From Escherichia phage vB_EcoS-613R10, in sequence record ON470590: a DNA stretch of 38,680 nucleotides; one strand, 5' to 3'. Position 1 is the stretch's first letter. Each line of letters opens with the position of its first letter. Shown here piece after piece: positions 1,618 through 20,791 of the stretch. Position numbers and translations under genes: made by a program. The notes under the pieces are model-generated. The model was not told where the DNA came from. It was given only the letters and a program-made list of their open reading frames with translations, and ran no database searches.

Positions 1618-1806
1618 TCACGAGGACTGAAGTTTCTCGCAATTAAAATTTATCAGTTTTACTTTCTGCTCTCTGGAAACGCCTGCTTCTTTTTTACCTG
1701 AGAGCATTTTTTCGCATTCTGATTTCGTTAGTTTAGATTTTGAATATCTTGTCCAGTTAGTAGGAGTGCCACCTTCCTTTTCAATAGTGGCGGTAATTTT
1801 ATACAT
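1618..1806 (-). CDS. ydaC: Small Rac protein YdaC-like
   Basis: 62 aa from ATG at 1806 preceded by GGAGGTG; the start overlaps the 3' end of the ralR frame. The longer 86 aa version in the ORF track is probably an over-extension. Confidence 0.55.
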   Translation of the reverse strand: MYKITATIEKEGGTPTNWTRYSKSKLTKSECEKMLSGKKEAGVSREQKVKLINFNCEKLQSS

Positions 1807-1843: not shown

Positions 1844-1993
1844 TCATCGTTCGAGTGCTTCTTTTTCACTTCCACCATAACCGGTTCGGGATTCGCATCC
1901 GTTACACTTCGCTCGGTAATATCCTGAAATGGCTTTCACCGTTACTGATGGACAACCACAAAATGGACATGGTTTAACATTGTCATATCTCAT
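1844..1993 (-). CDS. ralR: RalR/Lar restriction-alleviation toxin homolog, truncated by an in-frame TGA
   Basis: Translation MRYDNVKPCPFCGCPSVTVKAISGYYRAKCNGCESRTGYGGSEKEALER then TGA; 15 further in-frame sense codons (NKRTTGNNNGGVHV) run to TAA at 1799. Confidence 0.6.
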   Translation of the reverse strand: MRYDNVKPCPFCGCPSVTVKAISGYYRAKCNGCESRTGYGGSEKEALER

Positions 1994-2858: not shown

Positions 2859-5451
2859 TTGCATATTCCTTAGCCCAGCGGGGCAGTGATAACGTCTTAA
2901 TAGCTGGCCATTCATCGGTATTGAGGCAGTCAGCCAGGGTTCGCAGATTGCGGTGATATTCCAGCTGACCTGCCAGTTTTGCTTCTTCGCCCATCATGAA
3001 AATTTCAACCGGATAACGTCCGCATTCAATAGTTGTGCTGGCAACCAGAAAAACGAAAGTTGGCTGCACTCCAAACTGTGCTTCATAACCGTCACTGTAG
3101 AATGCATCCTGAACGTGATAGCGGTAGTCGTAATAAGCGGTTTTGAATCGTTGAATATCCGCCGTAGTTTTCACGTCCATGATCCAGTGAAATTCAGGGA
3201 TAATTTTGTCCGGACGGCACCGACACAAAATTGCTGTTTCAGGATCTTCCCAGTAAATTGATGATTCAGCGTGTCCGGCGCTTTCAACAAGCCATTGCCC
3301 CAGCGGCAAAGCCATAACGCTCTGATACATGAGTTCAATTTTCCGGCCTTCTTCGGCAGTGATAACCGTTTTTCCTGTGCTTGCGCATTCCCTCAGAAAC
3401 GCTTTCTCTTCTTCTTTTCCGGAGTTTGTCCGGCGGTTAAATTCAGGTGCTACGATAAAGCGGTTACTGAATTCTTCCGGCTCAAGTACCCGGCAGTGGA
3501 AAGCGGTTCCTAAATCGAGCGTTTTTGTCTTTGTGGTGTCCACGGGGGCATTTTTACGCCACAAATACAGTGCCGGAGTATCAGCAATGTCATCGAGCTG
3601 AGACTTACTGACACCGGGACCCGCGTGGTAATTCTCATTCGAAATTCCGTAATAAATACCTGGCTCTATGTCTTCTACGATTACGGGATCTGCGACTTCG
3701 CCAGTTTCATCACTGCAATCGCGATGCGGATCGCTGCCAGCATTCTCATTGTGCGGATGTTCAGCGCCTTCCATTTCCTCCGGATCATTTTCCTTAGCTT
3801 CAACCTGACTCTCTTCATCGAATGTTTCCTGGTATGTTGCGTCGCCCATCACCGCACCACAGTCAGGGCAGTTATCCCCGCCAGTCTGGCCGCAGGCATT
3901 GCAGGCTATTTCCGGTTCCTGTTGCACTACTGGCTCAGGTTGATTCATATCCGGGCTGGTTTTTTCCGTTTCTGGCTGGTTCTGGTACACACAATCGCGA
4001 GTCTGGATCCCCTTTACCCATTTCGGATCGTTCGGGTCGCTAATTCCGTCAACAAATTCACCACGTGATGCAGCAAGCAATTTATCGGCATCGACAGGAT
4101 TTTTTGATGGAATGTTTTTCCGGGCTTCATGGAGTTCTGCCCGCAGTTCCTGATATTTCGCATCAACAGAATTTACCTGTGACTGAGCATCCAGCGGCTG
4201 CGTGTCCTGATGATGTTCAGTTGCGTCCGGTTCCATTGTTTCAGCCTCTCCCTGTTCAACTGCCGTTGTTCCAGATGGTTGCGGTTTTTCTTCATCATCC
4301 TGTTTTCCTTCTTCTGTTACTCGCTGCGGCATCGGGGCAGAGGAGCGACCGCAGGCAATATCCACGATTTCCGGATCAGGGTTGGCATGATCGGTTTCAG
4401 TCAGTACTTTGTTCAGATATTCAGTGACGTGCGCGGGGATGACCTCGATCCCAATTGGTGCTTCTTTTACGGACGCAACCACGATGGCGCGGGAATAATC
4501 CAGCCCGCCAGGCATGGTGATGAATTTGTCGCGGAAAACAGAAAAGGGCGGTTTATTTTCAGCGATAATTTCCTCAATGCGTTTAGCGTGTGCCGGATGA
4601 AGGTTATAGATGTCCAGATCCATTGAACGGGCCAGTACGCCAGTGGCTACGTCGCGCGCCAGTGACGTCAGATCGTGTACGAAACCTTCGCCGCGATCGG
4701 TGAGGTTTCCGCCGCCAGCATTAGCACCGGAAGCCGTGCGAGTGATGTGTGAAACACGATTACCCTTCATCCACTCTTTTGTCAGCAGTCCTCGATCGGT
4801 GTAGTCAGCGTTCAGGTATGCTTCGAAAAAAGCAGTTATCAGTCCCAGGTTTGAATTACCAGGATTAGGGAAAACTTTGTCAGTGTCACGAACCAGTTTG
4901 TGGAGTTCGCGAATTTCCAGCGGGTCGAGCAGGCTGGTTTTGTGGGAAACAGCCAGGGCAGTAACAGCCGGTAGTTCTTCAGCCCGAGCAATGTGTAATG
5001 CCTGGAGTCCGTCGCGTGAAACGTGCGTTACCGGTTTTTCGCTGCCGTGTTGAGCAAGCCAACGAATGGGCAGTTCCTGGCCAGAAATTGGGAGTAGCAT
5101 ATTCTCCTCAATCTCAGTCATGTCTTCGCCGTTGACGTTGGTATTGCCTTGATAGTGAGCGTTGTCTGGTGCTGCTCCCGGTTTTAGTTCCCATGTCATG
5201 GAGTCTTTGCTGAGTTGATAGCGTTCACTCCAGGTAAAATCGATCTCACCTTCAGCGGGCAGGTCATTAACGACAGGAAAATTCGTGGCAACAGCTTTAA
5301 AATAGCTGCTCAGTTTTTTACCTGACTTAACGATCAGGTAGTCCAGAGTGGCACAGGTCGATTCAAAATCGTTGCTTGCCCACAGGACGACGTCAGGTTC
5401 ACCGGATGATTTTTTCGCTTTCCGTAACAGGAAGAGTGGTTTTGTGCTCAT
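2851..5451 (-). CDS. recE: Exodeoxyribonuclease VIII RecE
   Basis: 866 aa ORF; recognised as Rac RecE; its stop overlaps the recT start. Confidence 0.96.
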
Positions 5452-6735: not shown

Positions 6736-7224
6736 ATGTTGGATGTATTTACTCCATTGTTGAAACTTTTTGCTAACGAGCCACTCGAAAGACTTATGTA
6801 TACGATTATCATTTTTGGTCTCACTCTCTGGCTGATACCGAAAGAGTTTACTGTCGCATTCAATGCTTATACTGAAATACCTTGGCTCTTTCAGATTATC
6901 GTTTTTGCCTTTTCTTTCGTGGCCGCCATTTCCTTCTCAAGATTGCGAGCACATATTCAAAAGCATTATTCATTACTACCAGAGCAACGAGTATTGCTTC
7001 GTTTATCTGAGAAAGAAATCGCTGTATTTAAAGATTTCCTTAAAACAGGAAATCTTATTATCACTTCTCCTTGCCGTAACCCGGTTATGAAAAAATTAGA
7101 ACGGAAGGGCATCATTCAACATCAGAGTGATAGCGCAAACTGTTCTTATTATCTCGTCACCGAAAAATACTCCCATTTTATGAAGTTATTCTGGAACAGC
7201 AGGAGTAGACGTTTTAATCGTTAG
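6736..7224 (+). CDS. sieB: Superinfection exclusion protein SieB
   Basis: 162 aa from ATG at 6736 (MLDVFTPLLKLFANEPLERLMYTIIIFGLTLWLIP...); membrane segments; opposite strand to the early-left operon, as for lambda sieB. Confidence 0.9.
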   Translation: MLDVFTPLLKLFANEPLERLMYTIIIFGLTLWLIPKEFTVAFNAYTEIPWLFQIIVFAFSFVAAISFSRLRAHIQKHYSLLPEQRVLLRLSEKEIAVFKDFLKTGNLIITSPCRNPVMKKLERKGIIQHQSDSANCSYYLVTEKYSHFMKLFWNSRSRRFNR

Positions 7225-11399: not shown

Positions 11400-11822
11400 A
11401 TGGCAAAAGTATTTACACCAGAAGAGCGGGAAAAAATTAAAGGGCAGGTTGTTGAACTTGTACGTCTGAGCGGTCGCGAGACGTTACGGGCTCTGGAGGC
11501 TAAAACCGGTGCATCAAGGTATTACATAAGCACTCTCGCCAGAGAACTGGTCGCCAGTGGTGATGTTTACAATTCAGGCTACGGATTATTCCCGTCTGAG
11601 CAGGCGCGTAAAGACTGGCAAAACGCCCGCAAAAAACTATCGAGGGCAAAGGTGAAGAAACCTGCTGTAGTTGATCCGGACCTTATCTGGTCATTACCAG
11701 ACGGAGAAATACGCCGCTATGACAGGCGTCTGAATATAATCTGTCGCGAGTGCCGGAAGAGCGAAGTCATGCAGCGTGTACTGGCGTTCTATCAGGGTAA
11801 TTTTCAGGATGTGCTGTTGTGA
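11400..11822 (+). CDS. Hypothetical protein
   Basis: 140 aa from ATG at 11400 preceded by GGAGG; no family recognised. Confidence 0.55.
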   Translation: MAKVFTPEEREKIKGQVVELVRLSGRETLRALEAKTGASRYYISTLARELVASGDVYNSGYGLFPSEQARKDWQNARKKLSRAKVKKPAVVDPDLIWSLPDGEIRRYDRRLNIICRECRKSEVMQRVLAFYQGNFQDVLL

Positions 11823-11983
11823 GCCAAATTAACAATCAGGGAACTGCGTGAACTGAAAGAGAAATCATAATCCAAATCTGAATAATTAAATTTAGCACTG
11901 TAAATAAAATTTAATCCTTAACCGGAGGGGGGGGCTGCACCCTCAAAATATTAGGAGGCGGCCCGAAAGGGCGGTAATGAAAA

Positions 11984-12487
11984 ATGACTGAATTAACCAA
12001 AAAGCAATTAATCGAAGAAGCTAAATTAAAAATAGCGATTGAGAAATGCCACCCCAATTCAGGGATGGCACGGGTAGAGGGCGAATTATTCAAAATTGCT
12101 CTGGCATCGCTGGAAGCAGAGCCAGTTGGTGATTTTTATGAATACAAACCGGATGACTGGTATCAGCGTTCGGCTGGAGATAAAGCGCCAAAATGGACGC
12201 CACCCTATGCCGTTTTTCCAGCGCCCGTAGTGCCGGAAGAAATGGATTTGCTTACATGCCATCTCGATGGTGTAACTGAAACATATGCTGAGGGATGGAA
12301 CGCTTGCCGCGCTGCCCTGCTTCAGGGCAAAGGGGAGCCCGGGAAACAAGTTCGCGAATTGACAATGCTGGTTAAACAATTGGTTAGTCAACTGAAGAAA
12401 CCGAAACCGGGCTGCAAATTGCCGGATAAAGTGATGGACTACCTGGAGCGAAGCGGACTTATAAGCGTGGAGGATGTTTTACGATGA
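11984..12487 (+). CDS. Hypothetical protein
   Basis: 167 aa ORF; an upstream ATG at 11977 is out of frame and stops after 4 codons; no family recognised. Confidence 0.55.
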   Translation: MTELTKKQLIEEAKLKIAIEKCHPNSGMARVEGELFKIALASLEAEPVGDFYEYKPDDWYQRSAGDKAPKWTPPYAVFPAPVVPEEMDLLTCHLDGVTETYAEGWNACRAALLQGKGEPGKQVRELTMLVKQLVSQLKKPKPGCKLPDKVMDYLERSGLISVEDVLR

Positions 12488-12567
12488 CCTGGCCTGAAGC
12501 ATTCACAACGGTAGGAATTGCGATGGCGGTGGCGCTGGTGGTGTATTCGATTTGCCGCTGGGGTTGA
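12484..12567 (+). CDS. Putative 27 aa hydrophobic peptide
   Basis: MTWPEAFTTVGIAMAVALVVYSICRWG; ATGA overlap with the stop of the upstream gene; single predicted membrane helix; too short to be certain. Confidence 0.35.
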   Translation: MTWPEAFTTVGIAMAVALVVYSICRWG

Positions 12568-12580
12568 TAATACTAAATAA

Positions 12581-12599
12581 CCAGCCCTTATGGGGCTGG
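12581..12599. terminator. Hairpin between convergent genes (terminator mainly for the minus strand)
   Basis: CCAGCCC-TTATG-GGGCTGG, 7 bp stem; on the minus strand it is followed by a T-rich run (TTATTTAGTATTA). Confidence 0.5.
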
Positions 12600-12607
12600 C
12601 TAATCAT

Positions 12608-13381
12608 TTAGAACTGTTCATTGCCATCGAGGTTAGGTAGCATAATTTTTTCAATCAAGGCGAGAGCCTTTTTGTCCCGGTCAGCGAAGTATTTCGGGGC
12701 ATATTGCGGCAACCAAATATTGTTAAAATGTTCTTTGAAATCTGCTAAATATTCATTTGGGTACAGCCTTGCAGGGTATACGCGACCATCGGGATATTCA
12801 TGGTCATAGGTAGGGAATGTTTTGGGTTCTACGTTTCTATTATCTCTTAACCATTGTGAAAATACTCTTCCTTGTGAAATGTCAGGAACCATTTTTTCTG
12901 GGAGTGTGTACCCTGCTTGTTCAAGAGGTGCAACCAAGTTGAATGTCAGTTCATTAAGAATAGAAAAGTGCGTGTGAGGAATTCTACTACGATTAACCAT
13001 GTACCGTTTTAAATGTACAGGCATTTCTGCTGTAGTTCTTTCCCCTGACATCCATTCACGAACCCATCTTGAAACCTGGACTGCAAATTTGGGCGATAGC
13101 CACTGCGCTAGATTAATAGCGATGTCAGGATGCACCCATGTCCCTTGGTTTTCAGGTCTTCCACCTTTAAATGATTGAATTAACTCCGATATGGGAATTC
13201 CCATATCGCGTGATAATTCGTCAAAAAACTCTTGAGTAGTTTTGAGTCTAGTGTAATCAGAGAGCAGTTTGCCCGCAGTTCTACACATTGATGTGGCGTT
13301 TATGTAACCATCTTTGGCACGTAAATGTATTATTTCGCCGTCAATTTCACGAGAAATCAAAGATAATTGAAAGGATGTCAT
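12608..13381 (-). CDS. KilA-N domain protein with uncharacterised C-terminal domain
   Basis: 257 aa; N-terminus (REIDGEIIHLRAKDGYINATSMCRTAGK) matches the KilA-N/APSES DNA-binding pattern from memory; C-terminal ~150 aa unrecognised. Confidence 0.7.
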   Translation of the reverse strand: MTSFQLSLISREIDGEIIHLRAKDGYINATSMCRTAGKLLSDYTRLKTTQEFFDELSRDMGIPISELIQSFKGGRPENQGTWVHPDIAINLAQWLSPKFAVQVSRWVREWMSGERTTAEMPVHLKRYMVNRSRIPHTHFSILNELTFNLVAPLEQAGYTLPEKMVPDISQGRVFSQWLRDNRNVEPKTFPTYDHEYPDGRVYPARLYPNEYLADFKEHFNNIWLPQYAPKYFADRDKKALALIEKIMLPNLDGNEQF

Positions 13382-13903
13382 TGAAAATTCCTCAAGTTGG
13401 AGAGTTCTGGAACATTAAGGCGAGGTGGCAGTAATGCACCATCTGTAATCTTTTGATACTGACGTAATCGGGCCTGATGTGCAACGCCTTGCAAGTATGT
13501 AACTCATTGAAAACGATCATTTTTATCTATTGACATCAAATGGCAAACTGTCATTGTGCGGCTATGGCAAGTGGCAAATGCTTATAAATCATATGGATAT
13601 AAATAGTACAGAAAGAGTTGTTTTCTCTAGGATATGAGTATACGCCCAATGCTGATTGGTTGAATTTTGTTCTTGTTTTAAAGGGTAAGAGTTTAAAGTG
13701 TTGGCAGTGATGTATTGGATAGTTAGAATTGCTGTGGGTGCTTGAGGCTATCTGCCTCGGGCATGAACACCAAAGGTAGATAGAGAAAAGCCCCAGTTAA
13801 CATTACGCGTCCTGCAAGACGTTTAACATTAATCTGAGGCCATATCTATGCGACACATAGAGATTAGCCTCTTACGGACCGAAAGGTCAAGGAGAAGCAG
13901 GCT

Positions 13904-14029
13904 ATGAAGCAGCAAAAGGCGATGTTAATCGCCCTGATCGTCATCTGTTTAACCGTCATAGTGACGGCACTGGTAACGAGGAAAGACCTCTGCGAGGTAC
14001 GAATCCGAACTGGCAGACGGAGGCTCTGA
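13904..14029 (+). pseudogene. hok-family type I toxin, C-terminally divergent/truncated relic
   Basis: Hand-translated MKQQKAMLIALIVICLTVIVTALVTRKDLCEVRIRTGRRRL (41 aa); the first 37 residues match HokD/RelF as recalled, then it diverges and stops early; SD AAGGAGAAG upstream; hok-like leader begins GGTGCTTGAGGCT near 13738. Confidence 0.6.
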
Positions 14030-14111
14030 TTCGTAGACTACTAATCTGAGTAAAAGACCCAGCGGGGAAAGAACCACGCCGGGACTAGTTAATAAGATAT
14101 TTATAGCGTGG

Positions 14112-14453
14112 CTATTCTTTTTTTGCGGTATAGACTTTTTCGCCTGAGAAGTCTGGAGCTACCCAAAAGTTAATATTAAACTGAGCATCATCGCTTAGTT
14201 CAACACGGTGCCAGTATTGTGGTGGGCTTGTTGCAAAAGCGCCAGCATTAATGACTACTTTTATCTCCGGTTCAGTAGCATTCTCATCAGCAAAACCATA
14301 ATATGTTACAGTACCTTCCATCACGCATAACTGTCCAAAAACACCTGCTGCTGTATTATGATGTGTTAATAACGCTGAAGGTACGTTCTCTTTTGTGAAG
14401 AACGGAGTTGAGCGTTTGATTACCCAGTCTTTAGGAATTCTCTTGTGTGTCAT
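14112..14453 (-). CDS. Small uncharacterised protein, possibly DUF1971/cupin-like
   Basis: 113 aa from ATG at 14453 preceded by GGAGGTGG; family assignment is a weak recollection. Confidence 0.55.
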   Translation of the reverse strand: MTHKRIPKDWVIKRSTPFFTKENVPSALLTHHNTAAGVFGQLCVMEGTVTYYGFADENATEPEIKVVINAGAFATSPPQYWHRVELSDDAQFNINFWVAPDFSGEKVYTAKKE

Positions 14454-15320
14454 AACCACCTCCCATAAAACATGCATTATAAATGCACCTTTTTGAGGGT
14501 TATGTCAAGCTGTTATGAAACACATAATTGATATGTTGATTAGAGGAGAAGATAGAATCAATATGGTTGTTTTTCGTATAACTATTTGTTTTACTTTTAG
14601 TTTGTGCATTCTGTGTGTTAGGAATAACTTATTAAAGTTTAACTAAAAAATCTCGATATAGTCCGCATAGATTACTGTTACTGAATCTTATTGTGTGCAT
14701 TAGTTGTGTTCTGAAATTTCAATTTAATTACTTATGATATATTTTTAACGATAAATGTTTTCCGGGTTAAAGACAGTGGGGGATGAGATAAGCAATATAT
14801 CATTAATCTTGATTATTTCCAGGATGCCTTTACTGTGCATATAAATAAATCATATACGCATCAAATAATGTAAAGGCATCCTTTTAGATATATCTTATCA
14901 AATGTTAATGATTTGAGTGGGAAACATGATTCCAGAAACTAATCATGCGGCTACTTTATAAAAATAATGCCCATATAAAACAGCCAGCGAAAAGGATTAC
15001 GGATAAAAAAGGAGCGAGATGTGCATAGTTGTTATTTTCCATGTTTAACCACCTTAAATAATTGATGATGACGGGATGTGCATCTGTAATGCTTTTGTTG
15101 AAATGTTATGATAAAAAAGAACTTTTTCATAACATTAAAATGTAATTTATCTAATCGTTTTTAATAATAAGTGTTGTATTTCTATCCTTGTATCAGCTAT
15201 TTGATATGTAGTGTTTGTTCATGTTATGTGGAGCTTTACACCATAGCCAGTTTATTTATACTTTATTCGTCAGCCTGAACAACTGGCATCTGCTGCACTG
15301 CGCCATCGAGAGATTGAGAA

Positions 15321-19196: not shown

Positions 19197-19333
19197 AATC
19201 TTAACTACAATATGATTCATTTTGATGATTGTTTCATAAGGAACAGTGAAGTAAGATCTAAGAGGAGTTAAATTTTATACAGTATAATCATAATATTGCA
19301 GCAAGGTGGTTATAATTGAAAGAATATTTAGAT

Positions 19334-20791
19334 ATGAATACATCTCATGTAAGAGTTGTTACTCATATGTGTGGGTTCCTGGTTTGGCTCTATAGTCTTT
19401 CAATGTTGCCACCAATGGTTGTAGCATTGTTTTATAAAGAAAAAAGCCTGTTCGTTTTCTTTATAACTTTCGTTATATTTTTTTGCATTGGTGGCGGAGC
19501 GTGGTATACAACTAAGAAATCTGGCATTCAATTACGTACCCGTGATGGGTTTATTATAATTGTAATGTTTTGGATTTTGTTTTCTGTTATTAGTGCATTC
19601 CCTTTATGGATTGACTCAGAACTTAATTTAACGTTCATTGATGCTCTGTTTGAAGGGGTTTCTGGAATAACAACAACAGGAGCAACTGTAATTGATGATG
19701 TTAGTTCATTACCTCGGGCATATTTGTACTATCGGTCACAGTTAAATTTTATAGGTGGTTTAGGAGTTATTGTTCTGGCGGTTGCTGTATTGCCATTATT
19801 GGGTATTGGTGGTGCAAAGCTTTATCAGTCAGAAATGCCGGGGCCATTTAAGGATGACAAACTCACTCCCCGCCTGGCCGATACGTCACGGACACTGTGG
19901 ATAACTTATTCTTTATTAGGTATTGCTTGTATTGTCTGTTATAGACTTGCAGGAATGCCTTTGTTTGATGCTATTTGTCACGGGATTTCCACAGTTTCGC
20001 TTGGTGGTTTCTCAACTCATAGCGAGAGTATCGGATATTTTAATAACTATTTGGTTGAGCTGGTGGCTGGTTCTTTTTCCCTGCTATCGGCTTTCAACTT
20101 CACTCTTTGGTATATTGTTATTAGCAGGAAAACGATAAAACCTTTAATCAGAGATATTGAACTTCGTTTCTTTCTGTTAATAGCCTTAGGGGTGATCATT
20201 GTTACCTCTTTCCAGGTCTGGCATATAGGTATGTATGACTTGCATGGAAGTTTTATTCATTCGTTTTTTCTTGCCAGCTCCATGCTCACTGATAATGGTT
20301 TAGCTACGCAGGATTATGCAAGTTGGCCCACGCACACGATAGTGTTTTTGCTGTTGTCAAGTTTCTTTGGGGGATGTATAGGTTCAACTTGTGGTGGAAT
20401 TAAGTCACTTCGATTTCTTATACTTTTCAAACAAAGCAAACACGAGATAAATCAGCTTTCTCATCCCAGAGCGTTGTTGAGTGTAAATGTAGGAGGGAAG
20501 ATAGTTACAGATCGTGTAATGAGGTCTGTATGGAGTTTCTTTTTTCTTTATACTCTCTTCACGGTGTTTTTTATACTGGTGTTAAATGGTATGGGATATG
20601 ATTTTCTTACATCATTTGCAACAGTGGCTGCATGTATTAATAATATGGGATTAGGTTTTGGGGCTACTGCATCGTCATTCGGAGTGCTTAATGACATTGC
20701 AAAATGTTTAATGTGCATAGCTATGATTCTTGGTCGCCTTGAAATTTATCCTGTTATTATATTGTTTTCAGGTTTTTTTTGGCGCTCCTAA
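19334..20791 (+). CDS. trkG: Potassium uptake protein TrkG
   Basis: 485 aa from ATG at 19334 (MNTSHVRVVTHMCGFLVWLYSL...); polytopic membrane protein recognised as Rac TrkG; visibly AT-rich. Confidence 0.95.
   Translation: MNTSHVRVVTHMCGFLVWLYSLSMLPPMVVALFYKEKSLFVFFITFVIFFCIGGGAWYTTKKSGIQLRTRDGFIIIVMFWILFSVISAFPLWIDSELNLTFIDALFEGVSGITTTGATVIDDVSSLPRAYLYYRSQLNFIGGLGVIVLAVAVLPLLGIGGAKLYQSEMPGPFKDDKLTPRLADTSRTLWITYSLLGIACIVCYRLAGMPLFDAICHGISTVSLGGFSTHSESIGYFNNYLVELVAGSFSLLSAFNFTLWYIVISRKTIKPLIRDIELRFFLLIALGVIIVTSFQVWHIGMYDLHGSFIHSFFLASSMLTDNGLATQDYASWPTHTIVFLLLSSFFGGCIGSTCGGIKSLRFLILFKQSKHEINQLSHPRALLSVNVGGKIVTDRVMRSVWSFFFLYTLFTVFFILVLNGMGYDFLTSFATVAACINNMGLGFGATASSFGVLNDIAKCLMCIAMILGRLEIYPVIILFSGFFWRS

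Follow-up and report, generated by a model that had tools for sequence, protein, structure and literature searches.

A truncated hokD-type hok/sok locus, most probably a relic, at a lambdoid module boundary in the sequence of Escherichia phage vB_EcoS-613R10

The 38,680-nucleotide sequence of Escherichia phage vB_EcoS-613R10 (record ON470590), referred to here at its full length as the window, carries a hok/sok-type type I toxin-antitoxin (TA) locus in which the part of the hok gene encoding the toxin C-terminus is destroyed. We consider it highly probable that this locus no longer functions and is the relic of a hokD-type hok/sok system. Its left two-thirds, comprising the promoter, tac leader, mok, sok promoter, Sok, hok Shine-Dalgarno sequence and codons 1-36, are identical to a functional-looking hokD locus, and from position 14011 onward another lambdoid module follows, bringing with it a multiply mutated HokW-type stub and none of the hok 3' untranslated region (UTR) elements. 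Descent places it with certainty among the hok/sok loci; under a functional definition, which calls for a full-length toxin and an fbi element, it is a degenerate derivative. An earlier reading made from the letters alone (the sequence-only reading) had proposed a hok/sok-type type I locus with a destroyed toxin C-terminus, and this is supported by alignments of the lesions and by a match to the Rfam model RF01794. A chance resemblance to hok is excluded. The toxin gene and the sequence that follows it contain the following features.

13904-14029, plus strand: truncated hok open reading frame (ORF) of 41 amino acids, MKQQKAMLIALIVICLTVIVTALVTRKDLCEVRIRTGRRRL; HokD residues 1-37, then RRRL and a stop.
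14011-14015, plus strand: mosaic breakpoint and frameshift; T for C at 14011, the first mismatch to the intact sister locus L097, and a 1-nt deletion in GGC-CAG at 14014/14015.
14030-14053, plus strand: decayed hok C-terminal remnant, TTC GTA GAC TAC TAA TCT GAG TAA, reading FVDY-stop-SE-stop against FVDYESEK-stop in HokW.
14056-14086, no strand assigned: GC-rich hairpin, a remnant of the first hok 3'-UTR stem-loop, followed on the minus strand by UCUUUUACU; its assignment is ambiguous.
14087-14111, no strand assigned: non-hok joining sequence, in the place occupied in intact loci by fbi (CCTCAACGCACCC) and the hok terminator.

Residues 1-37 of the ORF are identical to those of both HokD (WP_000813254.1, 51 amino acids), found in the K-12 Qin prophage and in other prophages, and HokW of phage 933W (51 amino acids), which with the same 37 residues also occurs in O157 prophages. 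The ORF ends 10 residues short of HokD, so that alignment confirms the earlier description of a HokD-like peptide that diverges after residue 37 and stops 10 residues early. The Pfam family HOK_GEF (PF01848) is matched with 59.1 bits (cut-off 22, E 3e-16), only profile positions 1-34 of 42 being covered. A Hok/Gef-homologous ORF with an N-terminal transmembrane helix is present. The product is shorter than the 49-52 or so residues of these toxins, lacks their acidic periplasmic C-terminus with its position 46 (Cys, or Tyr edited to Cys), and matches HokD (RelF), an equivalog defined over the full 51 residues, through residues 1-37 only. The NCBIfam Hok models did not discriminate, as intact HokD and HokW too score under their cut-offs.

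The lesions were mapped by alignment to four intact prophage hok loci and K-12 hokD, pairwise to 933W, and were also checked against about 80 intact HokW-type tails in IMG/VR. The toxin is truncated because of the 1-nt deletion at 14014/14015, by which the ancestral GGC CAG ACG becomes AGA CGG AGG CTC TGA, that is, RRRL-stop. A 2-nt deletion in the stretch ending with this TGA (14027-14029) restores the ancestral frame, in which a nonsense codon (GAA to TAA) stands at 14042-14044 and a 3-nt deletion has removed one codon ahead of the ancestral TAA (14051-14053). A further 2-nt gap lies in the hok 3'-UTR hairpin. The remnant tail is thus HokW-like (FVDY-SE), unlike that of HokD, and carries at least three independently inactivating changes. 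Homology to hok ends at about 14081 in the alignment to 933W. The earlier remark that the DNA downstream of the ORF still resembles a hok 3' end with indels therefore holds, with deletions of 1, 2 and 3 nt and the nonsense change, as far as about 14053-14081, and fails beyond, where fbi and the terminator are absent.

Differences from the best intact relatives are distributed very unevenly across the locus, with 6 in the 278 alignment columns up to 14012 and 24 in the 76 columns after it (Fisher p about 1e-12 with the best relative taken for each part, and 6e-8 with the O157 locus taken for both). Intact parents were sought with a "repaired" query, in which the left flank and leader of the window were joined to an intact hokD 3' end. 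Its best matches were four genomes (99.5% identity over 755 of 761 nt); a further dozen or so reached 93-98%. In one locus, L097 from strain Z247, identity to the window is 100% from 11800 to 14010, the first mismatch being at 14011, and the same KilA-N context surrounds an intact 51-residue hokD with fbi and terminator. Upstream, the Z247 prophage shares its ydaV, DUF1627, DUF977 and KilA-N genes with the window, and the proteins encoded by the last two have the same accessions; the KilA-N protein is WP_000200358.1 in both of the loci that we label L001 and L097, the latter being the one with intact hokD. Downstream of its hokD lies a DUF968-RusA-Q module. On the IMG/VR contig L052 both the truncated hok and the DUF1971-DUF1367 right arm agree with those of the window, and the left arm is a different one that diverges to the left of about 13778.

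Identical to Z247 on the left and sharing the truncated hok and right arm with L052, the window is a recombinant. Its crossover lies somewhere within 13778-14010, the 233 nt common to both parental types, one a Z247-like phage whose hokD was intact and the other an L052-like phage in which hok was already truncated. The truncation coincides exactly with the boundary between lambdoid modules, which does not fit simple in-situ decay of a contiguous gene. Thus, of the proposed decay of the toxin C-terminus, the destruction of the tail stands and its origin by in-place erosion does not. As the sister allele L097, identical up to 14010, encodes an intact 51-residue HokD, the 41-residue form is a derived mosaic-junction allele and not a native family.

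We also compared the allele with other copies. In the complete Escherichia coli genomes, 601 bases around the hok locus are found at 100% identity in about 100 of 5426, and a tail of the window type (at least 99% identity) in 104, the next best match being 83.8% over 68 nt. In IMG/VR the exact tail of the window is on 7 contigs, and the HokW-type tails mentioned above, about 80 in number, are all intact and nearly invariant. No intermediate alleles were found among the complete E. coli genomes or in IMG/VR. A pattern scan for the tail in the GTDB species-representative genomes gave zero matches and so provides no evidence that the tail originated outside E. coli and its phages. The RefSeq annotation pipeline PGAP lists the 41-residue product as WP_001445775.1, "Hok/Gef family protein", with the pseudogene flag absent, and this exact sequence is recorded from at least 1000 contigs.

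These records bear on the suggestion that the 41-residue form is a sequencing or assembly artefact, or else the native product of a distinct short Hok subfamily. PGAP does annotate an ordinary coding sequence, and a product of 41 residues passes the length filter that a recent Hok survey set at 40 residues (bioRxiv 10.1101/2025.08.07.668861). Against this, one and the same sequence recurs in 100-104 independent complete genomes and on 7 IMG/VR contigs, FVDY-stop-SE-stop is still legible in the ancestral frame beyond the stop, neither intermediates nor other short alleles with the tail of the window occur, and an intact allele of the parental type sits in the same context. The native-family possibility, which the sequence-only reading had itself raised, is ruled out by L097, and the suggestion as a whole is scarcely credible and effectively refuted.

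One copy of the allele has decayed further. On the IMG/VR contig L083 (IMGVR_UViG_3300007747_000074) the window-type allele has an extra deletion of 92-93 nt at about 13828-13919, between TTAA microhomologies, which removes mok, the sok promoter, the 5' part of Sok, and the hok Shine-Dalgarno sequence and start. This is a single metagenomic contig for which an assembly artefact is possible; as it stands, the deletion argues against strong constraint on what remains of the locus.

The encoded peptide would keep its transmembrane helix and lose the acidic periplasmic tail, including Tyr/Cys46, ending instead in polybasic RRRL. The net charge of the C-terminal segment is +5 in the 41-residue form, compared with -2 in HokD and -1 in HokW, and by the positive-inside rule export of such a segment would be hindered. 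By analogy with the Hok proteins studied experimentally, the peptide is most likely non-toxic, a view that we infer from the change in tail charge and from published work on R1 Hok, Gef and position 46. Of the 20 premature stops that single substitutions can create in R1 Hok, 18 abolish its toxicity, as do an 8-residue C-terminal FLAG tag and read-through of the stop codon (PMC9841398). For Gef (HokC), replacement of the C-terminal part by PhoA gave a non-toxic protein, and the periplasmic part has been proposed as the toxic domain (discussed in PMC8509063). At position 46, the Tyr codon is converted to Cys by TadA A-to-I editing in hokC, hokD and hokE, and a Cys46 disulfide is reported to be essential for HokB toxicity (both bioRxiv 10.1101/2025.08.07.668861).

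Several observations weigh against calling the locus dead. PGAP annotates the allele without a pseudogene flag. An intact transmembrane helix remains, and since type I toxins are in many cases short hydrophobic peptides, residual membrane activity on overexpression is possible. The published truncation data come from R1 Hok and Gef, not HokD (PMC9841398, PMC8509063), and single alanine swaps, including those at C31 and E49, leave R1 Hok toxic on overexpression (bioRxiv 10.1101/2025.08.07.668861). Codons 1-36 are perfectly conserved, which fits recent recombination; selection on the peptide is also possible.

The 41-residue Hok could thus be a membrane toxin that still functions, or a milder one linked to persistence, in an altered type I TA system controlled by Sok alone. 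This is unlikely. It would account for an allele unchanged in about 100 complete genomes and at least 1000 contigs, in which the promoter, mok coupling, hok Shine-Dalgarno sequence, start codon and whole transmembrane helix appear intact, and the toxicity of HokC, too, depends on the transmembrane region (PMC8509063). However, premature stops and C-terminal changes abolish the toxicity of R1 Hok and Gef (PMC9841398; PMC8509063), and here residue 46 and the acidic tail are gone and the tail is polybasic. Moreover, several independent lesions lie 3' of the first frameshift, a real toxin without fbi would be without its translational lock, and L083 has lost the hok start together with the sok promoter.

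Upstream of the truncated ORF the locus is organized as follows.

13701-13729, plus strand: hok mRNA promoter; TTGGCA, 17-nt spacer, TAGAAT; 10 of 12 positions in a consensus scan.
13736-13903, plus strand: hok mRNA leader; 5' tac element GGGUGCUUGAGGCU at 13736-13749, then stem-loops and the mok and hok Shine-Dalgarno sequences.
13786-13854, minus strand: predicted Sok antisense RNA, about 69 nt; single-stranded 5' tail, long hairpin and GGGGCUUUU 3' tail.
13848-13907, plus strand: mok-like leader ORF of 19 codons, MRHIEISLLRTERSRRSRL; GAGG 8 nt upstream.
13861-13890, minus strand: predicted sok promoter; -35 TTGACC (13890-13885), 18-nt spacer, -10 TAATCT (13866-13861).

The hok promoter is identical in sequence to that of L097, and the transcription start predicted from it, at about 13736, agrees with the first base of the Rfam leader match. 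This match, of the leader beginning GGGTGCTTGAGGCT at 13736, covers RF01794 in full (model positions 1-157; 101.5 bits against a gathering score of 59; E 4e-22). The earlier recognition of a hok-like leader is hence well founded, and the objection it had anticipated, that similarity to hok leaders might be lacking, falls away. The leader differs from intact hokD-type loci in 5 of 169 columns and is 100% identical to L097; it is structured, with a 5' tac element that forms a local tac stem in the minimum free energy (MFE) fold. Although RF01794 bears the name "sok antitoxin", it matches the hok-sense strand (13736-13906 of the window) and ends at the hok AUG. What the family describes is therefore the leader of hok mRNA, not antisense Sok itself, and its strand calls should not be taken for the strand of Sok.

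The mok-like frame noticed earlier is real and does overlap the hok start, but it had been given as ending at 13905, 2 nt short of its actual end at 13907. Within an ATGA sequence the hok ATG overlaps the stop of this frame, TGA at 13905-13907. The same frame is found in the intact hokD-type loci L002 and L003. Translational coupling of mok to hok is a predicted feature that appears to be preserved.

The 3' side of the mRNA is lost. In intact relatives the stop codon is followed by a GC hairpin and then, in every intact allele, by CATCCTCAACGCACCC, which complements the 5' end GGGUGC(U)UGAGG and is therefore the fbi element; in hokD-type loci a GC-stem/T-run terminator comes after it. In the MFE fold of the intact L002 mRNA, the first 12 nt or so are paired with fbi. 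All intact relatives have fbi, and in the window both fbi and a hok terminator are absent. A search of the window for the reverse complement of the mRNA 5' end, allowing up to 3 mismatches, gave zero plus-strand matches downstream of hok, with a total under the shuffle expectation, and no hok-type terminator was found after the truncated hok. The pairing of 5' and 3' ends suggested as a check on the locus is thus not supported: the fbi complement is missing, and the best downstream duplex is at chance level. That candidate, a fold-back duplex at 14136-14170 (-23.9 kcal/mol), was rejected as a chance pairing, given that 115 of 15460 30-nt segments of the window do equally well or better and about 0.85 such duplexes are expected in the scanned region. 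As for the hairpin at 14056-14086, it is likely the terminator of the DUF1971 gene, because a U-rich tract follows it on the minus strand only.

In the MFE fold of the window mRNA the 5' end lies in the local tac stem, paired with AAGCCCC at about 13788. In plasmid R1, the tac-stem conformation is that of the 3'-processed, translatable, Sok-sensitive mRNA (PMC9841398). With fbi gone, the mRNA would be unable to form the inert, stable 5'-3' closed form that serves as the post-segregational reservoir, and it would fold straight to the open tac-stem form, which would be accessible to Sok and short-lived. Because the loss of fbi removes the inert mRNA pool, delayed killing would be abolished even if the peptide kept some activity. 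We infer that the killer or addiction function of the locus is gone.

On the antisense side, the predicted sok promoter corresponds in position, by homology, to the promoter that precedes the annotated sokW in 933W, and its placement here follows from that homology. A consensus promoter and terminator scan called no terminator, and it did not call the sok promoter because its -10 is weak. The ends of Sok were mapped from the sokW misc_RNA annotated in 933W. The predicted Sok fold (-28.4 kcal/mol) shares its architecture with that of sokW (-32.6 kcal/mol), and the Sok region differs by 1 nt (at 13822) from intact hokD-type loci. An antisense Sok gene with its own promoter and terminator hairpin would thus be in place, as judged from sequence. 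Sok and the hok leader are probably still transcribed, and the two transcripts would form a futile sense/antisense pair.

The preserved antisense gene could be read differently, as an orphan antitoxin: its Sok would act in trans on hokD-type mRNAs from prophages and plasmids that share the cell or enter it, and by neutralizing them would counter addiction or abortive infection. Because Sok and SokW differ at several positions of the 5' recognition tail, any trans activity would be aimed at hokD-type, not hokW-type, mRNAs. Targets would be at hand, as genomes carrying the truncated allele have 2-5 hok-like places each and E. coli often has intact hokD-type loci whose leaders are nearly identical. 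Conservation of the sok promoter and the Sok hairpin also speaks for this reading. On the other hand, the identity of Sok is fully explained by the 2.2-kb block common to Z247-type prophages, the sok promoter is gone in L083, and versions of the right-hand module without hok are three times commoner. The allele is also invariant, which leaves selection on it unmeasurable. We consider such a role quite improbable. Were Sok to act in trans, it would make a modestly interesting case of anti-addiction. A phage-borne anti-Hok device, with Sok donated to disarm the hokD-type killers of rival prophages, plasmids or host abortive-infection systems, or with the polybasic-tailed peptide acting as a dominant-negative partner of full-length Hok, is a reading that we hold very doubtful.

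As a probable relic, the locus can be set beside hok genes already described. Its closest described relative is hokD/relF in the Qin prophage of K-12, whose product is identical in residues 1-37 and whose DNA is about 91% identical over the coding region and some 15 nt ahead of its ATG. Both are defective hok copies of lambdoid prophages and occupy one syntenic position, with replication genes on one side and the Q antiterminator module on the other, and each is the mirror image of the other: K-12 hokD keeps the 51-residue toxin, fbi and the terminator and has lost leader, mok and sok, which are replaced by relBE, whereas the window keeps leader, mok and sok and has lost the toxin tail, fbi and the terminator. 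The intact hokD-type loci (Z247, 15.TR.026_OXA and 23CRST050) have in succession the 51-residue HokD, the 3'-UTR hairpin, fbi (CCTCAACGCACCC), a GC-stem/T-run terminator and the DUF968-RusA-Q genes; in Z247 the KilA-N neighbour, promoter, leader, mok, sok and hok codons 1-36 are identical to those of the window.

The hokW/mokW/sokW locus of 933W belongs to the same family, has the same architecture and includes an annotated sokW antisense RNA. Its HokW C-terminus, FVDYESEK, is the closest to the tail of the window (83.8% identity over 68 nt). There, however, HokW is intact and fbi is present, and MokW is an in-frame N-terminal extension of HokW, unlike mok in the window. With R1 hok/sok the window shares the tac leader, mok coupling, antisense Sok and a homologous promoter context (GTAAGAGGCTA...), and its intact relatives share fbi; R1 mok has 70 codons and overlaps hok, compared with 19 codons in the window.

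Among chromosomal hok loci, hokA, hokC and hokE are inactivated. Inactivated hok loci in E. coli chromosomes were reportedly described by Pedersen and Gerdes in 1999; these, and the enrichment of hok in prophages, are covered in a later preprint (bioRxiv 10.1101/2025.08.07.668861). The known chromosomal inactivations are by insertion sequences or point mutation, and in the window a recombination junction of phage modules takes their place. The finding is ordinary and essentially already known, a genetic relic and not a new system. Loci of the hok/sok type at mosaic joints of lambdoid prophages are a known theme, of which this is a clean example, and hok is seen to decay piecemeal, K-12 hokD being without its front half, the window without its back half, and L083 without the middle too. 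The practical consequence concerns annotation: the 41-residue "Hok/Gef family protein" should be treated as a pseudogene product, since it could be miscounted as a live toxin in inventories of TA and defence systems in about 2% of complete E. coli genomes.

The genes flanking the locus are the two that had been proposed as a KilA-N gene and a small cupin-like gene, and Pfam identifies both.

12608-13381, minus strand: KilA-N domain gene, the left-hand neighbour (PF04383, 94.5 bits).
14112-14477, minus strand: DUF1971 (YeaR/TehB-N-like) gene, convergent with hok and first gene of the right-hand module (PF09313, 91.5 bits).

The right-hand module, which replaces the hok 3' end, consists of the DUF1971, DUF1367, DUF1364 and DUF1133/Q-like genes. 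Of the complete E. coli genomes, about 449 have the DUF1971 module, and in some 345 of them no recognizable hok lies upstream. Between the DUF1971 and DUF1367 genes there is an AT-rich stretch of 840 bp (14480-15320; 28-32% GC) that contains only short, unconvincing ORFs and has zero Rfam matches; it accompanies the module in the same 449 or so genomes at 94-100% identity. In the prophage of strain WL164 (L008), an Rfam scan of the hok-less region upstream of DUF1971 found neither hok nor sok. At 2850-3010 of L008 a terminator hairpin and the sequence adjoining it upstream weakly resemble the hok stop-codon/3'-UTR hairpin region, which may be an even older hok remnant. In L052, the place of KilA-N directly upstream of the truncated hok is taken by an ORF of 382 amino acids (4210-5358, on the minus strand of the locus), possibly a moron or a cargo gene of the defence type.

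As a whole, the window is a Rac-like prophage of E. coli. Strain 7/2 has the region inside a Rac-like lambdoid prophage that is integrated beside ttcA and contains intR, xisR, ralR, recET, kilR, sieB, ydaV and other genes, with trkG further along. A second GenBank record, ON470614 ("Escherichia phage vB_EcoS-666R9"), is nearly identical to the window. The two sequences (38709 and 38680 nt) are identical up to position 6922 and then differ in the sieB region, with a net difference of 29 nt, so that the window is a close variant of ON470614 in a different record. ON470614 is a prophage predicted by PHASTER in a carbapenemase-producing clinical isolate (bioRxiv 10.1101/2022.06.29.498070), and the hok ORF is left without annotation in it.

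The window also holds what appears from its sequence to be a complete RalR/RalA type I TA pair, as a full-length match to the RalA antitoxin small RNA (RF02694, 225 bits; 1622-1800, plus strand) adjoins ralR (1844-1993, minus strand). The RalA match overlaps a coding sequence on the opposite strand annotated as hypothetical/DUF1187, and RalA was stated to be undetected in the preprint on this prophage (bioRxiv 10.1101/2022.06.29.498070). The potassium-transporter gene trkG (19290-20765) is located between the lysis and terminase genes, as in K-12 Rac, and the prophage that carries it here has a complete-looking morphogenesis module.

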